Origin: an uncultured Alphaproteobacteria bacterium
GTDB taxonomy: Bacteria; Pseudomonadota; Alphaproteobacteria; ATCC43930; CGMCC-115725
Assembly (NCBI GenBank): GCA_963846635.1
Contig: CAWJXM010000009.1
Location: 1,889 to 65,888, forward strand
Direction: 5' to 3'
DNA length: 64,000 bases
Shown: positions 41,388 to 61,801 of the stretch, piece by piece
How positions within the stretch are numbered: the first letter of the stretch is position 1
Layout of the letters: each line of letters starts with the position of its first letter
The notes under the pieces: generated by a model
The model's database searches: none
What the model was told of the DNA's origin: nothing
The model's input: the letters and a program-made list of their open reading frames with translations, nothing else
Program-made: the position numbers and the translations under genes

Positions 41388-41464
<77 letters not shown>

Positions 41465-41506: not shown

Positions 41507-42417
41507 TTGCCGGAAGCCCTACGGAAGAACCACGCTGGATTTCGGATTCCCGCGGCAAGGGTCGGCCGCGACAGAATGCCACAGCTACCATTCAGTGCTT
41601 TGGCACCTCGGGCGATCCCCTCCGTGCGCCTTGCCAGCCCTCGCGCGCGCGCATCGGGCCGCGGTCGGGTTTCGTCAGGATCTCGGGACCGCCGCTCCCA
41701 GCGCCCATAACTCATTGATACCCCACGCTCCGGGGGGCATTTCCCCCAAGGCCCTCGATGGAACCAGCGCGGCGCGAGGGGGTCCAGCGGGCGCAAAAAG
41801 CCAAATTTAAAAATGAGAATCAATGGGTTAGGGTAATTCGGCGGGCGCATGGCTCCCGGGCTCGCTGACGGGTTCGGGCGAGGGCGGCTAAAAGACTGTC
41901 ATCATTGGCATTTCTGGGCAAACGGTGTCTCACGGCTGGCTTCGGAGCGCGCTGAAAAGGCCGAATAAGTCGGCGGAAACCCGACCCTAACGGGCTGCTC
42001 GGGGCTGGTTCCCGCTAACTCCATTGGGAGCAAATATCTTGCCACGTCGGCAAGAAGGATCGCGGTGAGACGGCAAACAGAGGCATTTCTCGCCCGGCGG
42101 TCGATGGCCCGGCCGAGCCTAACTCGAAACCGACCGACCCTGGTGCGGACCTATAGTGGCCAACGTCGGAAGGCTGCTACCCCAGGTCGATGGTTAGGGT
42201 TGGTGGCAAGCCGTCCTCCCATGCCCCCGAGGCGAGCGGCAGCAAAGCGGCGAGAGCGGCCGTTCACTCTAGTGCGGTCGAACTCGGGCGCGAGAAAGGT
42301 TGCATTCCCTCTCGATAACGCCGACGATCTTCGACAAAACACGTGTAGCTTCAAGTCGGTAACCACGCGCTGCCGTGTCGTGCGGCCAAAAATGTCAGCA
42401 TTAAGGAGGAGGATTTG

Positions 42418-42834
42418 ATGGCTCGAACATTCGTGGCACTCGGCCTGTTTTTGGCGACTTCGATCGGCTTTGCCGGTCCCGCACCGGCCCAGTACAACGT
42501 CCAGTACAATCCTCAGTACAACAATCCTCAATACAATCCCCAGCCCCAGTACAACAGCCCGGGACCCTACCAAGGTTACCAAGGCAACCAAGGCTATCCG
42601 GGCGGCTACCAAGGCGGTTACCAAGGCAACCAAGGCTATCCGGGCGGCTACCAAGGCAACCAGACCGGATGCCCCTATGGTCAGCAATTCGATCCCCGAC
42701 AGAACCGTTGCGTTACGGCGGCGGCCGCGATGCCGTCATGCCCGAGTGGGCAGCAATTCGACCAGAGCCAGAACCGCTGCGTCTATGCGCTGCCGGGCGG
42801 AGTGACGGTGCCGGGGCAGCTCCTCGGAAGGTGA
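42418..42834 (+). CDS. secreted Q/N/Y/G-rich repeat protein with two C-terminal CP.GQQFD..QNRCV motifs
   Basis: aaggaggagg lies upstream of the ATG. The signal peptide is MARTFVALGLFLATSIGFAGPAPA. QYN and GYQGNQGYPGG repeats follow. There are four Cys in two repeated motifs. Confidence 0.6.
   Translation: MARTFVALGLFLATSIGFAGPAPAQYNVQYNPQYNNPQYNPQPQYNSPGPYQGYQGNQGYPGGYQGGYQGNQGYPGGYQGNQTGCPYGQQFDPRQNRCVTAAAAMPSCPSGQQFDQSQNRCVYALPGGVTVPGQLLGR
42574..42657 (+). repeat. perfect 2 x 42-nt in-frame tandem duplication inside the repeat protein gene
   Basis: The unit ggttaccaaggcaaccaaggctatccgggcggctaccaaggc occurs at 42574-42615 and 42616-42657. It encodes GYQGNQGYPGGYQG twice. Confidence 0.9.
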
Positions 42835-46714: not shown

Positions 46715-46951
46715 ATGCACCTTGACCTAACCGACGAAGAGGCCCGCGCGCTCGCCCACCATCTCCGCGACGCGCTCGATTACGCCCGCGACCCGTTCGC
46801 CCCGCGGCTCGATCCGTTGAAGTCGATCCTTGCTAAGCTCGATCCTCCGGCGCCGCGGCCCGAACCGTTGCCGCCGCTGTCGGCCGGCATGGGCCGAGCG
46901 TCAGGCGTGCAGGGAGAAAGTAATCGCGTTGGCCGTACCGGCCGAAATTAA
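46715..46951 (+). CDS. small conserved hypothetical protein
   Basis: MHLDLTDEEARALAHHLRDALDYARDPFAPRLDPLKSILAKL resembles small ORFs I recall from rhizobial accessory DNA. It ends 20 nt before the next gene. Confidence 0.4.
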   Translation: MHLDLTDEEARALAHHLRDALDYARDPFAPRLDPLKSILAKLDPPAPRPEPLPPLSAGMGRASGVQGESNRVGRTGRN

Positions 46952-46971: not shown

Positions 46972-47877
46972 ATGGAAAAAGCGCCTTGTGGGATTTGCCG
47001 TAATGATCAAGCGGAATGTGAACTCACTGAGAAGCTGGTGAATTGGCGATGCCTGCGGTGCGGACAATTTTGCTACGACAAGGTAGACGGCCCACCAATC
47101 CTCGGTTCAACTGACGACGTGGTACGATTGTCTGGATGGGTTCGTGATCAGAACGATGCAGGAATAGTACCCGTTCACCTAAGTACAGAAACAATAGGAC
47201 GCGTAACAAATATGAGGTTGCCACGTCTTCCTGAGCGCGCAACTCGGCTTCTCGTTACACTAGCGCATCATTTCCCGACAGGAAACACCTTCTTTACTAT
47301 ACCGCCTACAAATCCTGAACTAGAGGGTCCCTCATATTCTCGTAATAAGGAGGAACTTTTGCTCTTACTCAATATTCTCGAAGAAAATGGTTTAGTACAA
47401 TCAATTAATGAAGCTTTTTCAATATCGGCTCGGGGGTTGGTGCGTGCTGAAGAACTTGGAGCTAGTGGATCGGGCTCACAAGGATTTGTTGCAATGTGGT
47501 TCGATGACAGTATGAACGACGCTTGGTTAAATGGATTTGAAGCTGGGATACGAGAAGCTGGATATTTCCCACGTCGGATCGACAGCAAAGATTATATCGG
47601 CGGGGTCTCCGATGAGATAATGGCAGAAATTCGCCGCTCGCTCTTTGTTGTGGCAGATTATACAGGTCAACGGAATGGCGTTTATTTTGAGGCAGGCTTT
47701 GCGGTGGGGCTTGGCCTTACGATTATTCCGACATGCCGATCCGATCAAATCGACAACCTCCATTTCGACATTAGGCACCTCAACACGCTAGTTTGGAACA
47801 CACCCGCAGAGTTGGCTGACAAACTCAACAAGCGAATAAGGGCTGTAATTGGAGCCGGACCCGACGCTACGGACTAG
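46972..47877 (+). CDS. Zn-ribbon + winged-helix + nucleoside 2-deoxyribosyltransferase-like (TIR-like Rossmannoid) domain protein
   Basis: CxxC pairs occur at aa 6-9 and 27-30. The middle segment is LLLLLNILEENGLVQSINEAFSISARGLVRAEELG. The C-terminal pattern FVAMWF...RRID...SDEIMAEIRRSLFVVADYTGQRNGVYFEAGFAVGLGLTIIP fits the Nuc_deoxyri_tr2-type signature, with Glu240 as the candidate catalytic residue. The gene is markedly AT-rich. Confidence 0.6.
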   Translation: MEKAPCGICRNDQAECELTEKLVNWRCLRCGQFCYDKVDGPPILGSTDDVVRLSGWVRDQNDAGIVPVHLSTETIGRVTNMRLPRLPERATRLLVTLAHHFPTGNTFFTIPPTNPELEGPSYSRNKEELLLLLNILEENGLVQSINEAFSISARGLVRAEELGASGSGSQGFVAMWFDDSMNDAWLNGFEAGIREAGYFPRRIDSKDYIGGVSDEIMAEIRRSLFVVADYTGQRNGVYFEAGFAVGLGLTIIPTCRSDQIDNLHFDIRHLNTLVWNTPAELADKLNKRIRAVIGAGPDATD

Positions 47878-47986
47878 CCCCGGTGAATGCCTACCACGGC
47901 CCGCCAATGACGCTCGGCAACGCCGCTGCGGCCGGTGCGGTAGCCGCCACGATGGTATGGCGGTAATCGGGACGAAATGGTCGGGC

Positions 47987-48184
47987 TTACCGCTTCAATC
48001 TGCGGGTTTGCAGCATCAGCTCTCGGTGACGGATTTCAACTGCCCCAACCTCGACATCTTCGGCGATTTCCTCGAAATCCCGCGCCGCTCGCTGCAGGAT
48101 TTCTCTCACCTTCGGTTGATGGGCCATTCCAGCCAGCCGGCGGGCTCGCTGAGCCATCCCACGGAAATCATCGGGCCGCTCCAT
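47987..48184 (-). CDS. small hypothetical protein
   Basis: 65-aa ORF with helical, charged composition. I recognise no family. Confidence 0.3.
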   Translation of the reverse strand: MERPDDFRGMAQRARRLAGMAHQPKVREILQRAARDFEEIAEDVEVGAVEIRHRELMLQTRRLKR

Positions 48185-49249: not shown

Positions 49250-49426
49250 TCACCGTTCCGACGCCGCGGCGAAGCGAACCGCACCGGCCTGCCGAGCCTG
49301 CCAAAGCGCCGCATACGTCTTGGCGATTTCCAATGACGTGACGACGTTCAGATCCTCGCTGTTCCAGGCCGCACTCGCTGAGAGATTGTAGCTGCCCGTG
49401 ATCGTCATGCGGAGGTCGATGATCAC
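49250..49426 (-). pseudogene. remnant of a PLD/Nuc-family nuclease (C-terminal part only)
   Basis: The 58-codon ORF is not in the track. VIIDLRMTITGSYNLSASAAWNSEDLNVV resembles the region after the HKD motif (..IID....TGS.N.S.SA...N.E). A stop codon lies immediately upstream. Confidence 0.3.
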
Positions 49427-49993: not shown

Positions 49994-51681
49994 GTAAGTG
50001 GGGCAAAATGGCGGGCAGCAGAATTTATGCAGGTTGGCCGCGGCACCGGATGATATCTGGCAGGAGCAGTACAGCGGGTTGCTCGGAAATGCCGAGGCGG
50101 CGGCCGAGATAATCCCAAAACGCGATGCCCAATTTGGCGCAGGTCTTGGCGAGCCCGAGGAAGGCATCGCGACAGTCTCGCCCGACATCACTGCGGGTGC
50201 CGCCGCTGACCTTACGCTTGGTCACGTGGCTGCGGATGTCGCGCTCGGAACCGTTGGTATGCAGTGGGATATCGGGGTGATCCAGCACGGCCAGCAATTC
50301 GGGCTTGTTGGCATGCAGCCGCACCAGCAGGCGATCAAGCGTGACGAAGCCGGTGCGGCGGCAAAAGATACGATCGAAGCGGGCGCGAAGTTGTCCGCGA
50401 CGGCGGGGCGTGGGGTTGAGGCGGTACGCTTTCAGATCGGCGTAGAACCGCCAGATCAACGCGCGGACATGCTTCTGCGCGACACGCTGCTGCGCGGTGA
50501 ACGTGTCGAGCTTATGAATCAGCCGCTCCGCGTGAACCCAGCATAACGCGTGCCGACCGACGTTGAACTGGCCAGCGTCATCGCTGACGATCACCGTATC
50601 ACGCAGAAACGCGTGCCCGTGGATGCTGCCCCACAGCGCGCCCTCGGTGGCGATCTGCACCGGGTTGGGCGTCACGTTGAGCGCCGTGAGGCCCAACCGT
50701 TCAAGGTGCGCCTGCCAGGCGGCCGGATCGGCAAACTGTTTGTCGGGATGTTCCGCGAGCCTGGCAATGGTCAGCCCAGCCAGCGCATGTTCGCGCATGT
50801 AGGCCAGGGCGGCATCATTGATCACGTAATCGGTGTGCCCGGCACGCAGCAGACCGAGGAAGTTTAGGCGACTCTTGCTTTCCGTCGTCCCGAACCAGGT
50901 GAAGTTGTCGTTGCCGATCTGCGTGCAGACGCCGGTCGTGCCCTTGTGACGTGCACCGGTGTCATCCACCGTAATCCAACGGGCGGTCTCCAGACCCACG
51001 CGCAGCACGTCACGCGCTTCGGCCAGGAATTCATCCTGCCCGGCGATCAGCAAACGCATGACCTGCCGCTTGGAGATGGCGAGGCCCATCGCTTGCAGCA
51101 GCGCCATCAGCCGCGGCACGCTCACTTGCCCCTGGTGGTATTGCATCAGCACAAAGCGGCGCAGCGCCGGCCCGAAGTGCCCCCTGACATCAGGCGGCAA
51201 GGGCGCGATCACCGTCTGACCATCTGGGCTCACCCAGCGCTCGCGCCGATAACGGATCACCCGGGCCCGCAGCTCGAGGTCCTGCACCACGAAATCCTCA
51301 TACCCTTTGAAGCGCGAGCCTTCAGGAACCTCCGCCTTGAGGATCTGCTCCTCGACCTTGACCCGCGGCACGACCTTGCCGCGCCTGCGGCGACGGGCCC
51401 CTCTTTCGCCGGGCTTCGGCGAGGTGCCGTTCTCCATCCCACTGGGTTTGATCGACGGTCGGCCCTTCAGCCCTTTCAGGCGTGCGATCTCCTCGCGCAG
51501 CTCAGCATTCTGGCGCTTCAGCTCGGCGTTGTTCTCCAGCAGCTTCAGAAGCAACTGCCTCAGCTCGGCCGGCGGCAGACCATCGATGTCGGGCGGGACG
51601 ACCACAGGGAGGTTGAATCAAACCGCACCGCGTCGGGGCAAGAAAAAAATCGACCCCCGCCCGGAATTTTGCCCCTCTTAC
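49994..51681 (-). mobile_element. IS66-family insertion sequence (single-ORF, ISBst12-like layout), 1688 bp
   Basis: The terminal inverted repeats are GTAAGTGGGGCAAAATGGCGGGC at 49994 and GTAAGAGGGGCAAAATTCCGGGC as the reverse complement ending at 51681. They are flanked by a perfect 8-bp direct repeat TTTCTTTC (49986-49993 and 51682-51689). Confidence 0.85.
50025..51605 (-). CDS. IS66-family DDE transposase
   Basis: 526 aa. It has an N-terminal leucine zipper (LRQLLLKLLENNAELKRQNAELREEIARLKG) and the C-terminal HTNGSERDIRSHVTKRKVSGGTRS...LAKTCAKLGIAFWDYL pattern typical of IS66 TnpC-like proteins. Confidence 0.8.
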   Translation of the reverse strand: MVVPPDIDGLPPAELRQLLLKLLENNAELKRQNAELREEIARLKGLKGRPSIKPSGMENGTSPKPGERGARRRRRGKVVPRVKVEEQILKAEVPEGSRFKGYEDFVVQDLELRARVIRYRRERWVSPDGQTVIAPLPPDVRGHFGPALRRFVLMQYHQGQVSVPRLMALLQAMGLAISKRQVMRLLIAGQDEFLAEARDVLRVGLETARWITVDDTGARHKGTTGVCTQIGNDNFTWFGTTESKSRLNFLGLLRAGHTDYVINDAALAYMREHALAGLTIARLAEHPDKQFADPAAWQAHLERLGLTALNVTPNPVQIATEGALWGSIHGHAFLRDTVIVSDDAGQFNVGRHALCWVHAERLIHKLDTFTAQQRVAQKHVRALIWRFYADLKAYRLNPTPRRRGQLRARFDRIFCRRTGFVTLDRLLVRLHANKPELLAVLDHPDIPLHTNGSERDIRSHVTKRKVSGGTRSDVGRDCRDAFLGLAKTCAKLGIAFWDYLGRRLGISEQPAVLLLPDIIRCRGQPA

Positions 51682-53060: not shown

Positions 53061-53082
53061 TCAGCTGTCGAATGTGCGGGTA

Positions 53083-54219
53083 ATGGCGGACGAGCCCATC
53101 TCCGATCCCGATCCCGTATTGACGAAGCGCGATCAGATCATATCGGCAAAACGGGAGAATGGCCTCAAACGAACGCTGTTGCTTGTGCTGATCATTACCG
53201 CCGGCCTGATAGCAACCGGGAGCGTCGTCGCCTACCTAGACCGCGAACCCGACTATGGCATCTCATCCCAGGTCATCGCACGGCTCAGCCCTAAAATGCA
53301 GGAATGGGCGGGGCGGCTTCGTGACGAACCCTGCAACCGTACGCTTGCGGCGCAGGTGGTGAGTGGGTTGCTGGCGCAGGCCGAATACGGGACAATCACG
53401 CGATATGTAGAAAGAGCCCACGAAAAATGCGGGCCGAACGAGGCGCTCCTCCCAGACCTATATGCGGCTCAAATAGGCTCCTCCGATTATCCGGCGGCTG
53501 AGCGAACCGCCAATGATTTAGTCTCGCAAGATCCTGCCGATCCGAATGCGTATGGGTGGAGAGCCGAAACGCGTGAGAGGCTGGGTGATATTTCCGGAGC
53601 CGACGCGGACATGCGTACCGCGCTGTCGCTCTTTCTCGACCCTTCCGACGTAGCCCTGTCGGTTTATTACGATCTGGCTCGGTTAGCGGCGAAGGTCGGC
53701 CATTACTGCGAGGCAGTGGCCACACTCCGGGACTACATCGCTTACGACCCTGAAAACCGACGCACTCAGCAGCTCAGCACACTAATGCGAAATTGGCAGC
53801 AGCAAGGTTCATGCGCGCCCTTATCTGGTACAGGTTCAGCCTTTTTCCGCTACGATCCCAACTCGACGGCAATCATTGTCCCGGTAGAGGTCAACGGTCT
53901 GCCGGCCCAGATGGTCCTCGATACCGGAGCGAGCCGGACCCTTCTAACCCAACGCTTGGCCGCCAAAGCTGGAATTGAGGTATCCGCTCCTCAAGGTGCG
54001 GTTGTCACGACTGCCAATGGTGCGACGTGGGTTCCGGGCGGTCGCGCCCGAAGCATCTCGGTTGGTGGGGCTCATCTGAGCGACGTGCCAGTGTTCATTG
54101 AGAACTCCGCTGACCCCTCTTTCGGCTTCGGCGTCGATGGTTTACTCGGCCTCTCATTTCTCGGGAACTTTCAGGTTCGCGTGGGAGGGGGCATGCTGGA
54201 GCTTCGACCCCTTCAATAA
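53083..54219 (+). CDS. membrane-anchored TPR-like + retropepsin-like (clan AA) aspartic protease
   Basis: One TM segment (TLLLVLIITAGLIATGSVVAYL) and a helical-repeat middle region are present. The C-terminal VEVNGLPAQMVLDTGASRTLL...GVDGLLGLSFL has the D-T-G-A active-site motif. The GTG at 53074 is an alternative start. Confidence 0.65.
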   Translation: MADEPISDPDPVLTKRDQIISAKRENGLKRTLLLVLIITAGLIATGSVVAYLDREPDYGISSQVIARLSPKMQEWAGRLRDEPCNRTLAAQVVSGLLAQAEYGTITRYVERAHEKCGPNEALLPDLYAAQIGSSDYPAAERTANDLVSQDPADPNAYGWRAETRERLGDISGADADMRTALSLFLDPSDVALSVYYDLARLAAKVGHYCEAVATLRDYIAYDPENRRTQQLSTLMRNWQQQGSCAPLSGTGSAFFRYDPNSTAIIVPVEVNGLPAQMVLDTGASRTLLTQRLAAKAGIEVSAPQGAVVTTANGATWVPGGRARSISVGGAHLSDVPVFIENSADPSFGFGVDGLLGLSFLGNFQVRVGGGMLELRPLQ

Positions 54220-55119: not shown

Positions 55120-56604
55120 TCATACCGAGGCTGCGGGATGAAGCTCCACGACATTCCCCGCGATCCTCGCGCCTCTGGTCGCCAGCCTAACGCCCAAGCA
55201 CATATAGCGTTGCTTGCCGCGTGGTCCTAATTTCCGCACCCCCACTTCGGGGGCAGCCGCGACGAGAGCTTGCTGAAAGCGCGAGGTGGACTTTACCTTG
55301 TGACCGTTATTCTCGCACCATGTTTGGTATATCTCGTAGAGAACCTTTAGCGCTTCCTCGTAATCCGGGCCGGTCTCGCATTTGTCACCTAGAAATCTTG
55401 TGATCGGACTTGCGATGTGTTCCATCATCTCGATCATGTCAGCCGCGCTTTTAGGTTGCTGGAAGTGACCCCTCTCCCGAAGTCTTTTCAACCCCGCAAT
55501 CGCTCGATTGAGAATGCCCGATCGCTCCTTGAGCAGCTTCGACGTGAGGGCAGTGTCCGGGTTCGCTTCAAAGCTCTGCCGAAACCGGATCAGGATAAAC
55601 CGGCTGACAATCGTAGCACTCGCATCCGTGAAGCCCGGGGCCTCATTGGAAAGCAGCAGGAACCGCACCGGGAGTGTGCCTTCCCAATCCTCTCTGTACT
55701 TCCTCGGGATGGAGATTGCGTCCTCGCCGCTGATCGTCAACATTCGCTCGACTAACTCATTCGTCGAGCCGTCAAGCCGGGCATCGCCAATTGTGGCTAC
55801 TTTCTTATCAATCAGTGACGCTAAGCCGAACTGTGTCTTGAGGCTCGCCATTGTCGGGTGAGCCACATTCGCTGCGCCGCCGAGTAAACCATCTAAGACG
55901 CGCGAAATCGTCCCCTTGCCCGAGCGCCTCTTTCCGATGAGCGCGAAGGCTTTCTGTTGTGTGGTATCGGCGGTGAGGAGATAGCCGAGCATTTCCTCGA
56001 TCGTCTGTTGCGCTTCGATATCGCCGGGCAGGATCTCTTCGAGGAACTTCTCCCAAAGGGGTGCCTGAGCTTCCGCGTCGAACGTGTAATCTACCGCGTT
56101 CATAGAGAAGAAGTCGTCCGAGTGGGGCAACAGTTCCGTAGTCGTAAGATCGAGAAGCCCGTTGCTGCACGGCAGGATATCCGCGGCCTTGTGCTTGCGC
56201 TGCTCTGGACTTGCCTCCGGCCCCCAAACGGGTGCTTGCAGATCACTGGAAACCCGAACTCGCGCTTTCAGTGCGTCGATAACTTGATTAACGTCTCGAC
56301 TGGTGGGGCGGAAGGGTCGCTCAGCTGTTAAGAGGGTTCCTTCGCTGTCTTTCTCGGTAATGCGGACGAACCCATTGTCCAGGAACTCATAGATCCGCTC
56401 ACGTATCGCCCCATCTTCGACCTCCAGATAATGGGTTCCTGTCCACTCGTAGAACATTTCGCGGTAATGGATTAGGGGCGATCTTGCCTGTGTCACAAAC
56501 TTCTTAGCAGTATCATAAGGCGCTGAGCGTTTGATTACTACACGCCCAGGGGAGACCCGAACTTGTCCTTCAGAGGCTCCTTGTGCTATATTATCTTCTG
56601 TCAT
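55120..56604 (-). CDS. phage/plasmid primase P4-family C-terminal domain / D5-like SF3 helicase
   Basis: Walker A IGKRRSGKGT is preceded by FLEEILPGDIEAQQTIEEMLGYLLT and followed by the RFLLLSNE (Walker B region) layout typical of TIGR01613/D5 proteins. Confidence 0.8.
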   Translation of the reverse strand: MTEDNIAQGASEGQVRVSPGRVVIKRSAPYDTAKKFVTQARSPLIHYREMFYEWTGTHYLEVEDGAIRERIYEFLDNGFVRITEKDSEGTLLTAERPFRPTSRDVNQVIDALKARVRVSSDLQAPVWGPEASPEQRKHKAADILPCSNGLLDLTTTELLPHSDDFFSMNAVDYTFDAEAQAPLWEKFLEEILPGDIEAQQTIEEMLGYLLTADTTQQKAFALIGKRRSGKGTISRVLDGLLGGAANVAHPTMASLKTQFGLASLIDKKVATIGDARLDGSTNELVERMLTISGEDAISIPRKYREDWEGTLPVRFLLLSNEAPGFTDASATIVSRFILIRFRQSFEANPDTALTSKLLKERSGILNRAIAGLKRLRERGHFQQPKSAADMIEMMEHIASPITRFLGDKCETGPDYEEALKVLYEIYQTWCENNGHKVKSTSRFQQALVAAAPEVGVRKLGPRGKQRYMCLGVRLATRGARIAGNVVELHPAASV

Positions 56605-58272: not shown

Positions 58273-59538
58273 CTACGAGGTATGAGAGCGCAGTGGAACA
58301 ACTTTGCCATCGTCGGACACGCTACCTTTCATCGCCGCGGAGATCCGAGCTGCTGTGCGATCGGCGACCGCCCGCAACGGATCATCAGCGAGGTGCGCAT
58401 ACCCTTCGGTGGTTCGTGCCTGTTTGTGACCAAGCACTTTCCCCACCATGTAGAGGGTGTTTCCATCCGCCACCGCGAACGACGCGAATGAATGGCGAAG
58501 GTCGTGCAACCGCAATCCAGGAAGTCCAGCGCGGACGCGCACTCGTTCCCAATCCTTTTGTAATCCGCTGTAATGGCCATCGCCTTTGGCGGCCGGCAGG
58601 ACGTGCACGGACGTTCGCGGCAGCCCACTCAGCAATTCCAGCGCTGCCGCGGCCAGTGGCACGACCTTCGCACCGGTCTTGCTGTCGGGAAGTCTGAGAC
58701 AGCCCCGCGCACCATCAACCCATTCCCAGCGGAGAGATAGGATCTCAGACTTGCGGCAACCGGTCAGGAGCAACAGTCGGACCGCGGCCGCTGCAGTAGG
58801 GCGCAGCCGATGCTCGGCTTCCATCGCCGTCAAAGCGTCCGCGAGGCTTGCAACTTCGGCCTCGGAAAGAAACCGCTCTTTCTTCTCGCCCTTCAGCAGC
58901 TGCACGCCCTTCGCAGGGTTTGCGGAGATCAGCTTGCGCCCGACTGCGAACTGCAGCATTGCGCCAAGGACGGCAAGTGAGCGAGCCGCCGTGCCCCGCC
59001 CACCTTCGACAATTGCCCGACCGCGCTTCCCGGTCTTGATATCCGCCTTGTTCTTGCCCGCGGCAACGTCGGCCTGGAATTTGGCGACATCTGCGCTGGT
59101 CAGAGTATTTAGCATTTTGCGGCCCAAGACCGGCTTTATATGCCGCTCGATGTTGGAACGGTCGGTTTCCCAACTCGACGCCTTTTTGTTCGGCTTGTCC
59201 GCCGACCCTTCAGAGAGATACAGCGCAGCCAGGTCCGCAACCGTAAGTGCCCGCTTGGCGTCAGCACGTTCCGAGGCAGGATCAGCACCGTCAGCGACAG
59301 CACCAAGCAGTTTCGCAGCCCGCTTGCGCGCCTCCTCAGGGGTCAGCTTCCCATGCAAGCCGAGCGAGATCCGCCGCGTCCGCCCACCGCGTCCGCCGAG
59401 CTTATATTGAACAACGTAGGACTTTCGGCCCGACGGAAATACGCGCAACCCGAAACCGGGCAGGTCCTCATCCCAGATAAATTTCTCACGTTCTTCCGGG
59501 CGCTCCGCGTCAACCGTTCTCTTGGTCAGCTTGGCCAT
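58273..59538 (-). CDS. int: tyrosine integrase, P4/CP4-57 type with DUF4102 arm-binding N-terminus
   Basis: The N-terminus is MAKLTKRTVDA...FIWDEDLPGFGLRVFPSGRKSYVVQYK. The catalytic region contains LLLLTGCRKSEIL, LRLHDLRHSFAS and LGHKQARTTEGYAHL. Confidence 0.9.
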   Translation of the reverse strand: MAKLTKRTVDAERPEEREKFIWDEDLPGFGLRVFPSGRKSYVVQYKLGGRGGRTRRISLGLHGKLTPEEARKRAAKLLGAVADGADPASERADAKRALTVADLAALYLSEGSADKPNKKASSWETDRSNIERHIKPVLGRKMLNTLTSADVAKFQADVAAGKNKADIKTGKRGRAIVEGGRGTAARSLAVLGAMLQFAVGRKLISANPAKGVQLLKGEKKERFLSEAEVASLADALTAMEAEHRLRPTAAAAVRLLLLTGCRKSEILSLRWEWVDGARGCLRLPDSKTGAKVVPLAAAALELLSGLPRTSVHVLPAAKGDGHYSGLQKDWERVRVRAGLPGLRLHDLRHSFASFAVADGNTLYMVGKVLGHKQARTTEGYAHLADDPLRAVADRTAARISAAMKGSVSDDGKVVPLRSHTS

Positions 59539-59681
59539 ATCCGCACCTCTTCGCATGCTCGTTCGCGTTCTTCCGCGGCAGGAAACGGAAGCCCCACGGA
59601 AGCCCGGCGATACGATTGCTGGAAATTTCGCACCTACCTCTACAATTTCAAGAGGCCCTTATCATTAGTAATTACGTTTGC

Positions 59682-60938
59682 TTAGGAAATTTCAGAAAGA
59701 AGCGGAAGACCCTGGAAAACAGGTATCCTTGACAATGGCATTGTAGAGGTCACCGGTTCGATCCCGGTTGGCTCCACCAACAAACCCAAGGGCTTACGGA
59801 AATTCGCGGGGCTCGCTAACACGCTACTAACACGCAACGCAAGTTGGGGAAGTTGGAGGCGAGCCCCCAACGCCTTCAAATCCGCAAAGTAGGCATCGAT
59901 GGCCTGGGTCGCTCCAGCAAGGTGATCCGGGCCAAATTTTGCGTATCGCTCCGTCGTTTTGTACCCGGAGGTGTGACCGAGGAAGCCAGCGACCTCCCAA
60001 ACCGGCACGCCGCGCTTACGCATTTCCGCCGCGATCGTGTGCCGGATCACGTAGGGCGTTACATCTGATATCGCTGGGATCTGACGGGCGGCTCGTTCCG
60101 TGAGGTGATCGAACGTCGACTTTATGCTCTTGAGGGGTCTTCCGTGGTATTGCACGACCGGTCCCGCGGGAAGAGCGCGAAGATAAGGGAGGAGCGTGTC
60201 ACAGATCGGCAGCGTTGGGCGGCGCTTCTTGTTTTGAGGCCGTCCGGGTGGATTGAGGCGGATCAGGCGGGCATCGCAATCGATCTGAAACGACGTGAGA
60301 TCGAGGATCGCCTTCGGACGGGCAGCCGTGCCGAACGCCAGCATCAAGTACATCGTTTGATGAGGCTCGGTAGCGGCATCGAATAGAGCCTTCGCTTCCT
60401 CGAGTTTCAAGAGCCGTTCGCGTGGCTCCCCTTCGGGAGCAAGTGCCAGCGAGATTGTCGGCGCGGCAGAGATTTCGCCTTCACGCTGAGCGCGGTTCAG
60501 AGCGGCTTGCCCCACCGCGAGCACTCGGCGGATATAGCCACTACTCAAACCTTGATCGCGGAGCGATTCGACGAATTCACGTTGGCGGGCGGATGTGATC
60601 TCCGAAACCAGAGCGCCCGCGAAGAATTCAGACCATTTGGCTAGGCCGTAGCGCGTCGGCTCGGCACTCGCGAGATGTCTGGCGTGCTGCTCGTAATAGC
60701 GAACCAGGCAAGTTTCGAGGTGCGCCTCATCGGAGCGTTGCTGCTCCATCTTTCCGTTGGCGATCACCCACGCGGCGAGCGCGAGTTTGGCGGCCTCAAG
60801 ATTATCTGTGCCGAGCGATGCACGGCAAGTCTGTCGAGTTGTGGTATCGAACCATGTGCGACACCAGGCTGAACTGCCGCGGCGCTGACTGAGCCAATAT
60901 CCGCCGATTTCCGCAATTCTGTCATGCTTTTGACGCAT
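59682..60938 (-). CDS. tyrosine recombinase/integrase (second element)
   Basis: LAFGTAARPKAIL (R), YVIRHTIAAEM (H-x-x-R region) and GHTSGYKTTERYAKF (H...Y) are present. The ORF has no stop before it reads through the tRNA fragment (…VEPTGIEPVTSTMP…). Confidence 0.85.
   Translation of the reverse strand: MRQKHDRIAEIGGYWLSQRRGSSAWCRTWFDTTTRQTCRASLGTDNLEAAKLALAAWVIANGKMEQQRSDEAHLETCLVRYYEQHARHLASAEPTRYGLAKWSEFFAGALVSEITSARQREFVESLRDQGLSSGYIRRVLAVGQAALNRAQREGEISAAPTISLALAPEGEPRERLLKLEEAKALFDAATEPHQTMYLMLAFGTAARPKAILDLTSFQIDCDARLIRLNPPGRPQNKKRRPTLPICDTLLPYLRALPAGPVVQYHGRPLKSIKSTFDHLTERAARQIPAISDVTPYVIRHTIAAEMRKRGVPVWEVAGFLGHTSGYKTTERYAKFGPDHLAGATQAIDAYFADLKALGARLQLPQLALRVSSVLASPANFRKPLGLLVEPTGIEPVTSTMPLSRIPVFQGLPLLSEIS
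59732..59780 (+). repeat. attR-like partial tRNA-Ala copy (49 bp)
   Basis: It is identical to 41416-41464. The base preceding it differs (g versus t), so it is a fragment and not a second tRNA gene. Confidence 0.85.
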
Positions 60939-61138: not shown

Positions 61139-61801
61139 TTACGGCTGGTCATCTTCACCTAGAGCTTTCCTAATACGTCCAACGGCCTCTTCGCCGAGCC
61201 ATTCGTTGATCACACGCGCCCAAGGCCCAAGAGGGCCGCTGTCATCGGGGAAAGCTATCGCTCGACACACTGCCGCGGCGGCGGCTCGGCCGGAATTCCT
61301 GGCGACTTCCCGGAGCTCATCGGATGGCAGAGATTGGAGCAACGCAGGCTCAACCGGCTCACCATCGGGTTTGACGCCTTTAATGATTTCGGCAATGGCG
61401 GCAGAGACCTGACTAAACGCAAACGGGTTCTCTAGCCACGGGCGCTCACTGACGTTCAAAGGACCTCCGGAGAACACCATGGCATGGTCGCCAGCGGCTT
61501 TCGCCGCGAAGCCCGACAGCAACGTGATCCCCGCGACCCGCGGCCCAAGCGCTAGTTCAAGCGCCTCCTTAAGCCGGTTTTGATCATCGAGGGATCGCTC
61601 TAGCCGAAATTCAATCTCTTCAGAGAGACTGCGGCCGGCTTGTATTGCCGCATCATTGATCCGGTCCCGCACAGCGACACGCAAGCGCGTATTGAATTGC
61701 GTCCGCTTGGCCTCGTCGCCCTTTGGAGGTCGCCCAGGCGATCTTCTCCCCACCTTGGGAGGTCGCCCAGGCGATCTTCTCCCCACCTTGTCGTCCAACA
61801 T
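61139..61801 (-). CDS. ribbon-helix-helix (Arc/MetJ-like) protein with duplicated AT-hook-like N-terminal motif
   Basis: KVGRRSPGRPP appears twice at the N-terminus. RTQFNTRLRVAVRDRINDAAIQAGRSLSEEIEFRLERSL fits a beta-strand plus two-helix RHH layout. The gene is divergent from the operator palindromes. Confidence 0.5.
   Translation of the reverse strand: MLDDKVGRRSPGRPPKVGRRSPGRPPKGDEAKRTQFNTRLRVAVRDRINDAAIQAGRSLSEEIEFRLERSLDDQNRLKEALELALGPRVAGITLLSGFAAKAAGDHAMVFSGGPLNVSERPWLENPFAFSQVSAAIAEIIKGVKPDGEPVEPALLQSLPSDELREVARNSGRAAAAAVCRAIAFPDDSGPLGPWARVINEWLGEEAVGRIRKALGEDDQP
61725..61790. repeat. perfect 2 x 33-bp tandem duplication
   Basis: The unit ggaggtcgcccaggcgatcttctccccaccttg occurs at 61725-61757 and 61758-61790. 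It is in frame and lies within the 5' end of the RHH gene. Confidence 0.9.

Follow-up and report, generated by a model that had tools for sequence, protein, structure and literature searches.

A stand-alone zinc-ribbon and winged-helix protein with a TIR/NDT-like catalytic domain, encoded on a tRNA-Ala island, as a candidate single-gene phage-defence effector

We analysed a stretch of 64,000 nucleotides from an uncultured Alphaproteobacteria bacterium (positions 1,889 to 65,888 of contig CAWJXM010000009.1, GenBank assembly GCA_963846635.1; hereafter the window) with respect to one open reading frame (ORF) at 46972..47877 of the forward strand, which starts with ATG and encodes 301 amino acids followed by a stop codon. 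The encoded protein joins an N-terminal zinc ribbon and winged helix to a C-terminal domain of the superfamily formed by Toll/interleukin-1 receptor (TIR) enzymes together with those of the nucleoside 2-deoxyribosyltransferase (NDT) type, and is a candidate stand-alone N-glycosidase. We see roughly an even chance that it acts in phage defence as a single-protein sensor and effector, hydrolysing either nicotinamide adenine dinucleotide (NAD+) or nucleotides. The gene is carried by a P4-type island integrated at a tRNA-Ala gene. Several circumstantial lines converge on defence: homology to effectors, autonomy of the gene, patchy spread, foreign base composition, embedding in restriction-modification (R-M) operons and carriage on mobile elements. 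A preliminary description of the window, made from its letters without database searches, had recorded the same ORF and had proposed it as a single-gene conflict effector; the ORF is present as described, and the proposal finds circumstantial support, including the lack of a conserved partner in 87 loci.

The C-terminal domain belongs to the TIR/NDT superfamily

The catalytic domain comprises residues 169-295 (47476..47856, forward strand) and is supported by matches in PADLOC, PF05014, PHROG and Foldseek. The C-terminal motifs that had been read by eye in the preliminary description, FVAMWF (residues 172-177), RRID (201-204) and D229...E240, were all found in the translation. A putative active-site segment, D229-YTGQRNGVYF-E240, is encoded at 47656..47691 of the forward strand (D229 codon 47656-47658, E240 codon 47689-47691) and sits inside DYTGQRNGVYFE of the translation. 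Conservation was assessed in an alignment of 72 relatives that were 49-83% identical to the query; D229 was invariant and E240 at least 90% conserved, and both lie within residues 216-253, the part aligned to PF05014. E240 would be the counterpart of the catalytic glutamate of NDT and TIR enzymes. The arrangement D229-x10-E240-AGFAVGLG resembles the ExGxAxxxG signature of NDT and DNPH1, a resemblance that we use as a lead only.

The strongest profile match of the protein was the PADLOC model PDLC00733 (Effector/TIR), with an E-value of 1.6e-10 over residues 202-285; the match spans only 84 residues of a model of 388 positions. All 72 relatives matched the same model, the best of them at 1.4e-14. 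PF05014, the NDT family, was matched over residues 216-253 with 16.6 bits (E 0.0091), thus missing the gathering threshold of 28.8 bits. It was the only Pfam family found for the catalytic domain and was seen, below threshold, in 68 of the 72 relatives (best E 6e-5); among more distant relatives the best score looked at in detail was 25.7 bits, still under 28.8. Pfam TIR and TIR_2 did not match the protein, and among the 72 relatives a single one matched TIR_2 at E 0.095; one distant relative touches the Pfam TIR models at E 0.0085. NCBIfam gave no match for the protein, and in PHROG it matched phrog_16139 at 1.5e-41.

In a Foldseek search of the Protein Data Bank (PDB), the predicted structure matched TIR domains with a probability of 1.0, namely 8i87_C of the SPARTA TIR-APAZ complex (E 1.9e-4), 7djt_A (1.9e-4), 8spo, 4c6t, 4lqc and 3h16; these TIR matches include SARM1 as well as plant and bacterial TIRs. 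Enzymes of the NDT fold were matched with the same probability (8qc0, 8rh3, 6qai, 8qhq and 4p5e; template modelling score normalised to the target 0.5-0.6), among them DNPH1 bound to hydroxymethyl-dUMP (hmdUMP; 8qhq), and the E-values of the TIR and NDT matches lie within about two orders of magnitude of each other. Among viral structures (BFVD), the best match was a 303-residue protein named CMP/hydroxymethyl CMP hydrolase (probability 1.0), and several viral NDTs were matched too. Direct sequence searches against the PDB, either with the single protein or with the profile of the 72 sequences, returned nothing for the catalytic domain and only noise from the zinc ribbon. The C-terminal domain therefore belongs to the superfamily of TIR and NDT N-glycosidases. 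This agrees with the Rossmannoid clade assigned in the preliminary description, as PDLC00733, the sub-threshold match to PF05014 and the Foldseek probabilities of 1.0 all place the domain inside this fold. The tools used do not separate a TIR from an NDT branch, nor NAD+ from a nucleotide as substrate.

The N-terminal half is a rigid module with an acidic winged helix

The N-terminal half begins with a zinc ribbon (residues 1-40, 46972..47091, forward strand), in which C6, C9, C27 and C30, the two CxxC pairs pointed out in the preliminary description, were invariant in the 72-sequence alignment. The conservation of these cysteines, of D229 and of E240 exceeds what coincidence would produce. 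The structure was predicted with AlphaFold2 from the alignment of the 72 relatives, and the ribbon was modelled as four beta-strands at residues 2-36 with a predicted local distance difference test score (pLDDT) above 93. Relatives weakly match several zinc-ribbon families of Pfam, and a sub-branch of about 255 residues lacks the ribbon. The ribbon is followed by a helical connector (residues 41-84, 47092..47223, forward strand) with helices at 47-62 and 72-79, a conserved LSGWVR(D/E)QN motif and a basic surface; there is little or no variation at W56, R58, N61 and G64, and the mean net charge is +2.7.

A winged-helix domain occupies residues 85-165 (47224..47466, forward strand). In the model, it extends over residues 86-163 and consists of helices at 86-100, 115-118 and 126-138, a hairpin at 142-151 and a last helix at 153-163; a disordered linker (164-168) leads to the five-stranded alpha/beta domain at 170-292. 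The full-length model had a mean pLDDT of 86 and a predicted template modelling score (pTM) of 0.61, which leaves the mutual orientation of the two halves unfixed. Residues 1-165 modelled alone reached a pLDDT of 95 and a pTM of 0.87, and therefore the N-terminal half can be regarded as a rigid unit. Foldseek matched this half to DNA-binding domains of the CRP/FNR type, with 4ev0_A at a probability of 1.0 (root-mean-square deviation 3.3 A over 81 columns) and modest E-values of 0.015-0.07 for the matches of this kind. A profile search also brushed the CRP-family regulator 2zcw weakly (E 1.3).

The winged helix predicted by eye in the middle of the protein is thus borne out by the model and by Foldseek, and its character is unusual for a DNA reader. 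Across the family, an acidic helix occupies the recognition position (residues 124-139, RNKEELLLLLNILEEN); its mean net charge is -3.1 and its isoelectric point 4.3, which makes canonical reading of the DNA major groove unlikely. The conserved basic residues R52, R58, R77, R89 and R92 are located in the helices that precede it. The winged helix may rather serve in sensing a protein or ligand, or as a scaffold.

The gene is the most AT-rich stretch of its size in the window

The target ORF has a GC content of 0.482 and a GC content at third codon positions of 0.421. Sliding windows of 906 nt across the whole 64 kb had a mean GC content of 0.612 +/- 0.031, and 0.08% of them were as low as the target ORF; the lowest of all (start 46941) falls on the gene itself. 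Likewise, when the window was divided into bins of 1 kb, 47001-48000 was the bin of lowest GC content (0.503). The foreign, AT-rich composition claimed in the preliminary description thus stands, and the flanks of about 65% GC that went with it do not, as they were measured at about 0.61-0.63.

The shift in composition is abrupt. The ORF of 78 amino acids just upstream (46715..46951, forward strand), which runs in the same direction and whose stop codon lies 21 nt before the target, has a GC content of 0.671, and GC-rich sequence is back straight after the target stop codon. A Shine-Dalgarno-like GGGAAG is located 7-12 nt 5' of the target ATG; a scan for promoter and terminator consensus sequences around the gene was uninformative. 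The 78-residue ORF matched nothing in Pfam, PHROG or PADLOC. Only two other loci of the family contain a homolog of it, L005 directly upstream of the gene and L007 on the opposite strand at a distance of 2.1 kb; it is a lineage-specific neighbour and not a family-wide partner.

A large, patchily distributed family of single genes

A search of 5.8 billion proteins yielded 674 relatives, nearly all of about 300 amino acids and aligned from end to end, and not one of the 674 carried an informative name. When one genome was taken per GTDB species (185,579 species), a relative was encoded in 491 stretches. The distribution covers more than 10 phyla and is patchy: relatives were found in Alpha-, Beta- and Gammaproteobacteria, Dehalococcoidia (mostly without the ribbon), Latescibacterota, Planctomycetota and Verrucomicrobiota, and further in Spirochaetia, Acidobacteriota, Gemmatimonadota, Desulfobacterota, Ignavibacteria and Deinococcota.

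When the ORFs within 6 kb on either side of the gene in 87 loci were clustered all against all, none emerged as a conserved neighbour, and large clusters consisted solely of antisense shadow ORFs that the gene itself gives rise to. The gene therefore appears as a stand-alone unit. A toxin-antitoxin pair or a multigene system was rejected, as no conserved partner, antitoxin or immunity gene accompanies it.

The AT-richness seen in the window is a property of the family. In 77 of 80 loci (the genome loci L007-L086) the gene was AT-richer than its flanks, with a mean GC difference of -0.094 and an extreme of -0.23 (Wilcoxon p 1.5e-14). The dip is limited to the coding sequence: the difference is close to 0 at upstream distances of 600 nt and above, takes values of -0.08 to -0.125 within the gene and is back at about 0 within 200 nt past the stop codon. 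It is kept even where housekeeping synteny is conserved, as in L035, L042 and L048, in which the gene has a GC content of 0.34-0.37 and the flanks about 0.55. Recent transfer alone is therefore not a sufficient explanation, and the AT-richness possibly reflects selection that keeps a toxic gene silent or weakly expressed.

The catalytic domain has a wider distribution than the full architecture. Its profile, searched against 1.84 billion representatives, matched 14,304 clusters (50% identity) at E-values up to 1e-3 and 1,796 at up to 1e-30. From the best 150 catalytic-domain matches 148 sequences were retrieved; 110 had the same N-terminal module, and the remaining ones had other N-terminal caps, yet in them, too, the enzyme was preceded by a similar helical segment that resembles a winged helix. 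A protein from the Bacillus mycoides plasmid pl395 (WP_078178485.1; L087 6491-7444) has the CxxC...CxxC pattern, a helical, winged-helix-like middle and a catalytic domain with 46% identity, and its N-terminal sequence has diverged past detection by BLAST. In annotations by the NCBI pipeline PGAP, the relatives from Bacillus and Leptospira go by the name of nucleoside 2-deoxyribosyltransferase; for the branch of WP_078178485.1 this name of a salvage enzyme is probably misleading. In a relative from a Streptococcus prophage the enzyme is N-terminal and followed by an unrelated tail.

Homologs occur in R-M operons and on mobile elements

Distant members of the family (30-48% identical) were found in Type I R-M operons of organisms that are not related to each other. 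In L060 (4029-7925) the order is hsdM, gene, hsdS, all co-directional with gaps of 20-30 nt, and the S subunit matches 1yf2 at 1e-102. In L102 (2566-8906) the co-directional order is hsdR, hsdM, hsdS, gene, and the gene overlaps hsdS by 16 nt; in L013 (7594-12432) it stands between hsdM and an AAA ATPase gene, again co-directional. HsdM was also encoded within 3 kb in L057, L069 and L105-107; in five loci on viral contigs its distance was 1-3 kb upstream. In total, about six distinct loci of about 89 were associated with Type I R-M systems, an adjacency that by our rough estimate would be far above chance. For genes embedded in operons of this kind, experiments have repeatedly demonstrated that they are defence systems (PMC11411939; bioRxiv 10.1101/2024.01.29.577857).

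Mobile carriage was seen in several forms. One relative is located in an island with a D5-type primase and a resolvase, one beside a DUF3631/XRE/HNH block and another 3 kb from a P4-type integrase. Relatives were present in 21 plasmid records. Among these are megaplasmids of Bacillus mycoides, on which the gene lies beside prophage remnants, next to ArpU and an integrase. On a Bradyrhizobium plasmid it lies among ThiF, helicase and AAA-ATPase genes. Relatives were also carried by 15 IMG/VR viral contigs. In the Streptococcus prophage 315.2 a distant relative is part of the lysogeny module, between the cI-like repressor and cro.

The nearest neighbours, picked as the longest ORF near the gene, were of mixed kinds. 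Among 134 such ORFs, the commonest Pfam families were AAA_21 (6), SMC_N (5), tRNA-synt_2 and AAA_23 (4 each), and GshA, short-chain dehydrogenases/reductases (SDRs), ApbE and resolvase (3 each); Type I S subunits as well as integrases and DNA methylases were seen twice each. The PADLOC models matched most often in the nearest neighbours were mad3, AriA and AbiLi (6 each), NsnB and PtuA-type ATPases (5), GajA (4) and Type I methyltransferases (3). The prominence of AAA_21/AriA/PtuA/GajA-type ATPases and Type I methyltransferases in these lists speaks for an association with defence.

As a separate observation, a comM-like Mg-chelatase gene occurs near the closest genome-resolved homolog (58% identity; L002/L007, 1539-3074 and 7884-8756), as a partial second copy at a distance of about 1.2 kb and as a full copy another 5 kb away. 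This suggests an element inserted at comM.

Proposed function and alternative explanations

In the mode of action that we propose, we infer the catalytic role of E240 and D229, the substrate, the trigger, the activation through oligomerisation and the defence phenotype. The N-terminal zinc ribbon, connector and winged helix would make up a rigid module for sensing or scaffolding, which the flexible linker of residues 164-168 connects to the enzyme. In the uninfected cell the enzyme would be inactive and its expression low. On infection, the N-terminal module would bind a cue from the phage, probably a protein or a nucleic acid, and binding would induce oligomerisation and thereby assemble the active sites. 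In TIR and NDT enzymes the active sites form between subunits, which makes oligomerisation probable here as well. E240, assisted by D229, would then attack a ribosyl or deoxyribosyl nucleotide at C1'. The most likely substrate would be NAD+, as in TIR and retron NDT-like effectors, with a (deoxy)nucleotide as the alternative. Depletion of NAD+ or of the nucleotide would block phage replication through abortive infection or growth arrest.

Several observations weigh against such a role. The protein stays under the Pfam gathering thresholds of both the TIR and the NDT models, the Foldseek E-values are modest even at their best (1.9e-4), and in parts of the catalytic domain the pLDDT is 59-72. 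The N-terminal module was not found on another effector in any of 145 matches, all of which had the same architecture or were fragments or the ribbon-less variant; the swapping of sensors that is typical of many defence families is thus not seen for this module. In the remaining cargo of the island PADLOC recognised no defence system and matched only PDC-M08B weakly, so that the notion of a defence hotspot, which the preliminary description brought up for satellite and P4-like islands in general, gains no independent support from this island. Recombinases were found within 10 kb on either side in 4 of 80 loci, a lower bound obtained with a crude tblastn probe (a handful of recombinase, primase and insertion-sequence queries) that is insensitive across phyla. 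Most homolog neighbourhoods have no recognisable mobile-element or defence gene, and ordinary families such as tRNA-synt_2, GshA, ApbE and SDRs are common in them. In four Pirellulales/Thermoguttaceae genomes an SDR gene lies directly upstream and an oxidoreductase-like ORF, judged by eye from an N-terminal dinucleotide-binding motif, downstream; in three genomes of the Gallionellales type gshA is upstream and a tRNA-synt_2 gene downstream. These many ordinary neighbourhoods temper the case for defence. The metabolic neighbours and the synteny kept within Planctomycetes and Gallionellales, together with homologs that adjoin recA and secA, the fold match to CRP/FNR DNA-binding domains and the relatives annotated as NDT, would also fit a housekeeping or regulatory protein, either an enzyme of nucleoside or nucleotide salvage or a ligand-sensing transcription factor whose NDT-like domain binds or converts a nucleoside and whose winged helix regulates. 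We consider this distinctly unlikely, given that the family is very sparse (491 stretches against 185,579 species) and scattered over many phyla, differs in composition from its host in 96% of loci, the dip lying in the coding sequence only, travels on islands, plasmids and prophages and occurs inside R-M operons; in addition, the recognition-position helix is acidic family-wide and there is no conserved target operon or neighbour. The preliminary description had held that homologs in uniformly housekeeping contexts would speak against it, and the contexts found are not uniform: they include R-M operons, P4-type and D5-primase islands, plasmids and a prophage, with foreign composition in 77 of 80 loci.

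Other alternatives keep the fold and change the substrate or the beneficiary. A defence enzyme of the same fold might leave NAD+ alone and be an N-glycosidase whose targets are (deoxy)nucleotides, either specific to the phage or from the bulk pool (for example hydroxymethyl-dCMP or -dUMP, or dNMPs), or else modified bases of the phage's DNA, so that the phage would be starved or damaged without the cell necessarily being killed. In its favour are PF05014 as the only Pfam family matched (68 of 72 relatives), the NDT label given by PGAP to the Bacillus and Leptospira relatives, the CMP/hydroxymethyl CMP hydrolase as best BFVD match, the DNPH1-hmdUMP structure 8qhq in the PDB list and the NDT/DNPH1-like ExGxAxGxG after a strand ending in D; residence with Type I R-M systems would complement the restriction of unmodified DNA, in analogy to TgvAB (PMC11411939). 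The strongest profile match, however, is a TIR-labelled effector model, the characterised NDT-like defence effector of retron Ec86 was reported to deplete NAD+ (PMC13276650), and the winged helix is poorly suited to DNA binding, contrary to what a DNA glycosylase would call for; we regard a nucleotide-directed enzyme of this kind as unlikely. Carriage by an integrative island, plasmids and viral contigs and membership in PHROG families could also indicate a gene that benefits the element, either a hydrolase of host immune signals (of the cyclic ADP-ribose type or other nucleotide messengers) or a manipulator of the nucleotide pool for the island or prophage, and TIR-fold enzymes that hydrolyse cyclic ADP-ribose have been described (PMC13455253). 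Such counter-defence seems very unlikely in view of the embedding in host Type I R-M operons and the position in a prophage lysogeny module on the strand of repressor and integrase, both of which point to host-protective expression in the uninfected or lysogenic cell; moreover, the majority of copies lie on chromosomes and have no mark of a mobile element in their vicinity, and the closest profile match is a defence effector. The TIR-like fold and the conserved glutamate would finally allow for a ThsB-like, signal-generating sensor with an effector encoded elsewhere in the genome, as sensor TIRs carry variable recognition domains. We give this hardly any credence, since no conserved partner was found in 87 loci and no ThsA or Thoeris model among the neighbours, a singly transferred gene would lose its unlinked effector, and the profile match is to a TIR model of the effector type.

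A bolder and distinctly improbable extension of the single-protein sensor-effector reading would be that the thousands of clusters represent widespread one-protein immune sensors, in which the zinc ribbon and a winged helix that does not bind DNA would sense a phage component and trigger an NDT-type N-glycosidase on a (modified) nucleotide, not NAD+; such sensors would complement R-M, and their AT-richness would reflect silencing of a toxic enzyme.

Comparison with known systems

Literature searches found no named defence system that combines zinc ribbon, winged helix-turn-helix (wHTH) and a TIR-like domain, or that consists of a single NDT-like gene. Neither the protein nor its 72 relatives matched the PDC/HEC candidate models of PADLOC-DB v2, and PADLOC v2, Pfam and NCBIfam assigned the family to none of their named systems, in line with the preliminary description, which had recognised none. 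A recent systematic survey of TIR proteins explicitly left out the stand-alone ones.

The family shares with the NADase effectors of the TIR type (the CBASS-type model PDLC00733, SPARTA TIR-APAZ, SARM1) the PADLOC model in all 72 relatives, the best Foldseek matches in the PDB, a conserved glutamate after the third strand and a presumed abortive infection through NAD+ consumption. It differs from them in that the Pfam TIR models are nearly silent, that there is no cyclase, Argonaute or other partner, and that the motif around the glutamate (ExGxAxGxG) reads more NDT-like. With NDTs, DNPH1 (Rcl) and CMP hydrolases of the MilB type it has in common PF05014, a fold probability of 1.0, and viral NDTs and a CMP/hydroxymethyl CMP hydrolase at the top of BFVD; however, it scores under the PF05014 gathering threshold, and classical NDTs are small stand-alone salvage enzymes without zinc-ribbon or wHTH modules and are not compositionally foreign cargo.

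The effectors of type II retrons (type II-A Retron-Eco1/Ec86, Sen2) also contain an NDT-like domain and a winged helix (PMC7736814), and the NDT-like effector of Ec86 depletes NAD+ in phage defence (PMC13276650). Both families thus have an NDT-like N-glycosidase and a winged-helix module in one polypeptide, but in the retron effectors the order is reversed, with the NDT-like domain N-terminal and the wHTH C-terminal. Retron effectors also need an adjacent reverse transcriptase and a non-coding RNA giving rise to multicopy single-stranded DNA, and none is present at the target gene. Assignment to type II retrons was rejected, as there was no reverse transcriptase among the island and neighbour ORFs, no Rfam retron RNA in the window and no PADLOC match to a retron effector.

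Swarozyc (KpSwz) is a single protein with a TIR-like NADase of the DUF4062 family and a helix-turn-helix/winged AUX sensor that binds the phage portal, and is active as an oligomer (bioRxiv 10.64898/2026.05.01.722283). As a single protein with a TIR-like NADase and a winged sensor, it offers the closest functional analogy for an acidic winged helix that does not read DNA; unlike Swarozyc, the family described here has a zinc ribbon. Membership in Swarozyc was rejected, as DUF4062 (PF13271) was found in none of the 72 relatives at E-values up to 0.1. The defence genes embedded in Type I R-M operons (TgvAB; PDC/HEC of PADLOC) resemble the family in the position of its distant homologs between or after hsdM, hsdS and hsdR, but there is no sequence relationship and the copy in the window is not beside an R-M system.

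Assignments to multigene systems with TIR components were rejected as well. For CBASS, there was no conserved neighbour in the 87 loci, no cyclase model among the top neighbour families and no PADLOC match in nearby island ORFs, and the N-terminus consists of a zinc ribbon and wHTH, not of SAVED or STING. For Thoeris, no conserved partner was found, and no ThsA or Thoeris model was among the top neighbour matches.

If confirmed, the protein would be a compact, single-gene addition to the immune enzymes that target NAD+ or nucleotides (TIR, SIR2, retron NDT-like effectors and Swarozyc), with a new sensor module made of a zinc ribbon and an acidic winged helix and with a divergent catalytic branch. 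In view of the TIR, NDT-like and Swarozyc precedents the candidate is not conceptually surprising. Its domain lies between canonical TIR and NDT in sequence and could shed light on the recruitment of N-glycosidases of this superfamily to immunity and on the evolution of their choice between NAD+ and nucleotides as substrate. Because the large family is named hypothetical protein or, misleadingly, salvage enzyme, assigning it a role would correct annotation at scale. A gene of 0.9 kb with D229 and E240 as candidate catalytic residues is readily testable.

The island carrying the gene and neighbouring features

The gene is located on an integrated element of 18.3 kb that is delimited by two 49-nt direct repeats of 100% identity, attL at the left border (41416..41464) and attR at the right border (59732..59780). 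The integration target is a tRNA-Ala(GGC) gene (41388..41463, forward strand; ARAGORN and Rfam), the 3' end of which forms attL. The element encodes a P4-type tyrosine integrase (58273..59556, reverse strand; Arm-DNA-bind_3 3.6e-18, Phage_integrase 1.2e-17) and a primase-helicase with D5_N, DUF5906 and Pox_D5 matches, similar to the P4 alpha replication protein (55120..56604, reverse strand; Pfam, and DNA primase families of PHROG down to 1.2e-66). With repeats at the 3' end of a tRNA gene, a P4-type integrase and a D5-like primase-helicase, the island has the features of P4-like, satellite-type elements, and the gene is indeed island-borne, as the preliminary description had it. The mean GC content is 0.587 in the island, compared to 0.626 in the chromosome on its left.

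The other cargo comprises an IS66-family transposase (50025..51605, reverse strand; DDE_Tnp_IS66 4.5e-17), a TPR-repeat protein fused to a retropepsin-like aspartyl protease (53074..54219, forward strand), which is the source of the weak PDC-M08B match (E 5.8e-5), a SnoaL-like protein and many ORFs with no family match. The nine unannotated island ORFs scanned with PHROG gave no match at all, and Pfam found no gene for the exploitation of a helper phage (capsid size, or psu/sid/delta type) among the scanned island ORFs, with small ORFs covered in part.

Directly beyond attR on the right is a second tyrosine integrase gene (59682-60938, reverse strand), which overlaps the 49-nt fragment of the tRNA-Ala gene with its 3' end. 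This points to an earlier island at this tRNA, next to which the 18.3-kb island was inserted later in tandem. In the neighbouring element, an Arc-like DNA-binding ORF (61139-61801, reverse strand) contains a 33-nt tandem repeat of 97% identity (61720-61785). Near the left border of the island, an ORF rich in glycine, tyrosine and glutamine (42415-42834, forward strand; weak Pfam matches to GRP and CBM_14) contains an exact tandem duplication of 42 nt (42574-42657). Next to the IS66 transposase, an ORF of 150 amino acids with no Pfam match overlaps the ORF at 49250-49426 (reverse strand), and the latter resembles by eye the C-terminal part of a nuclease of the PLD/Nuc type, possibly truncated by IS66.

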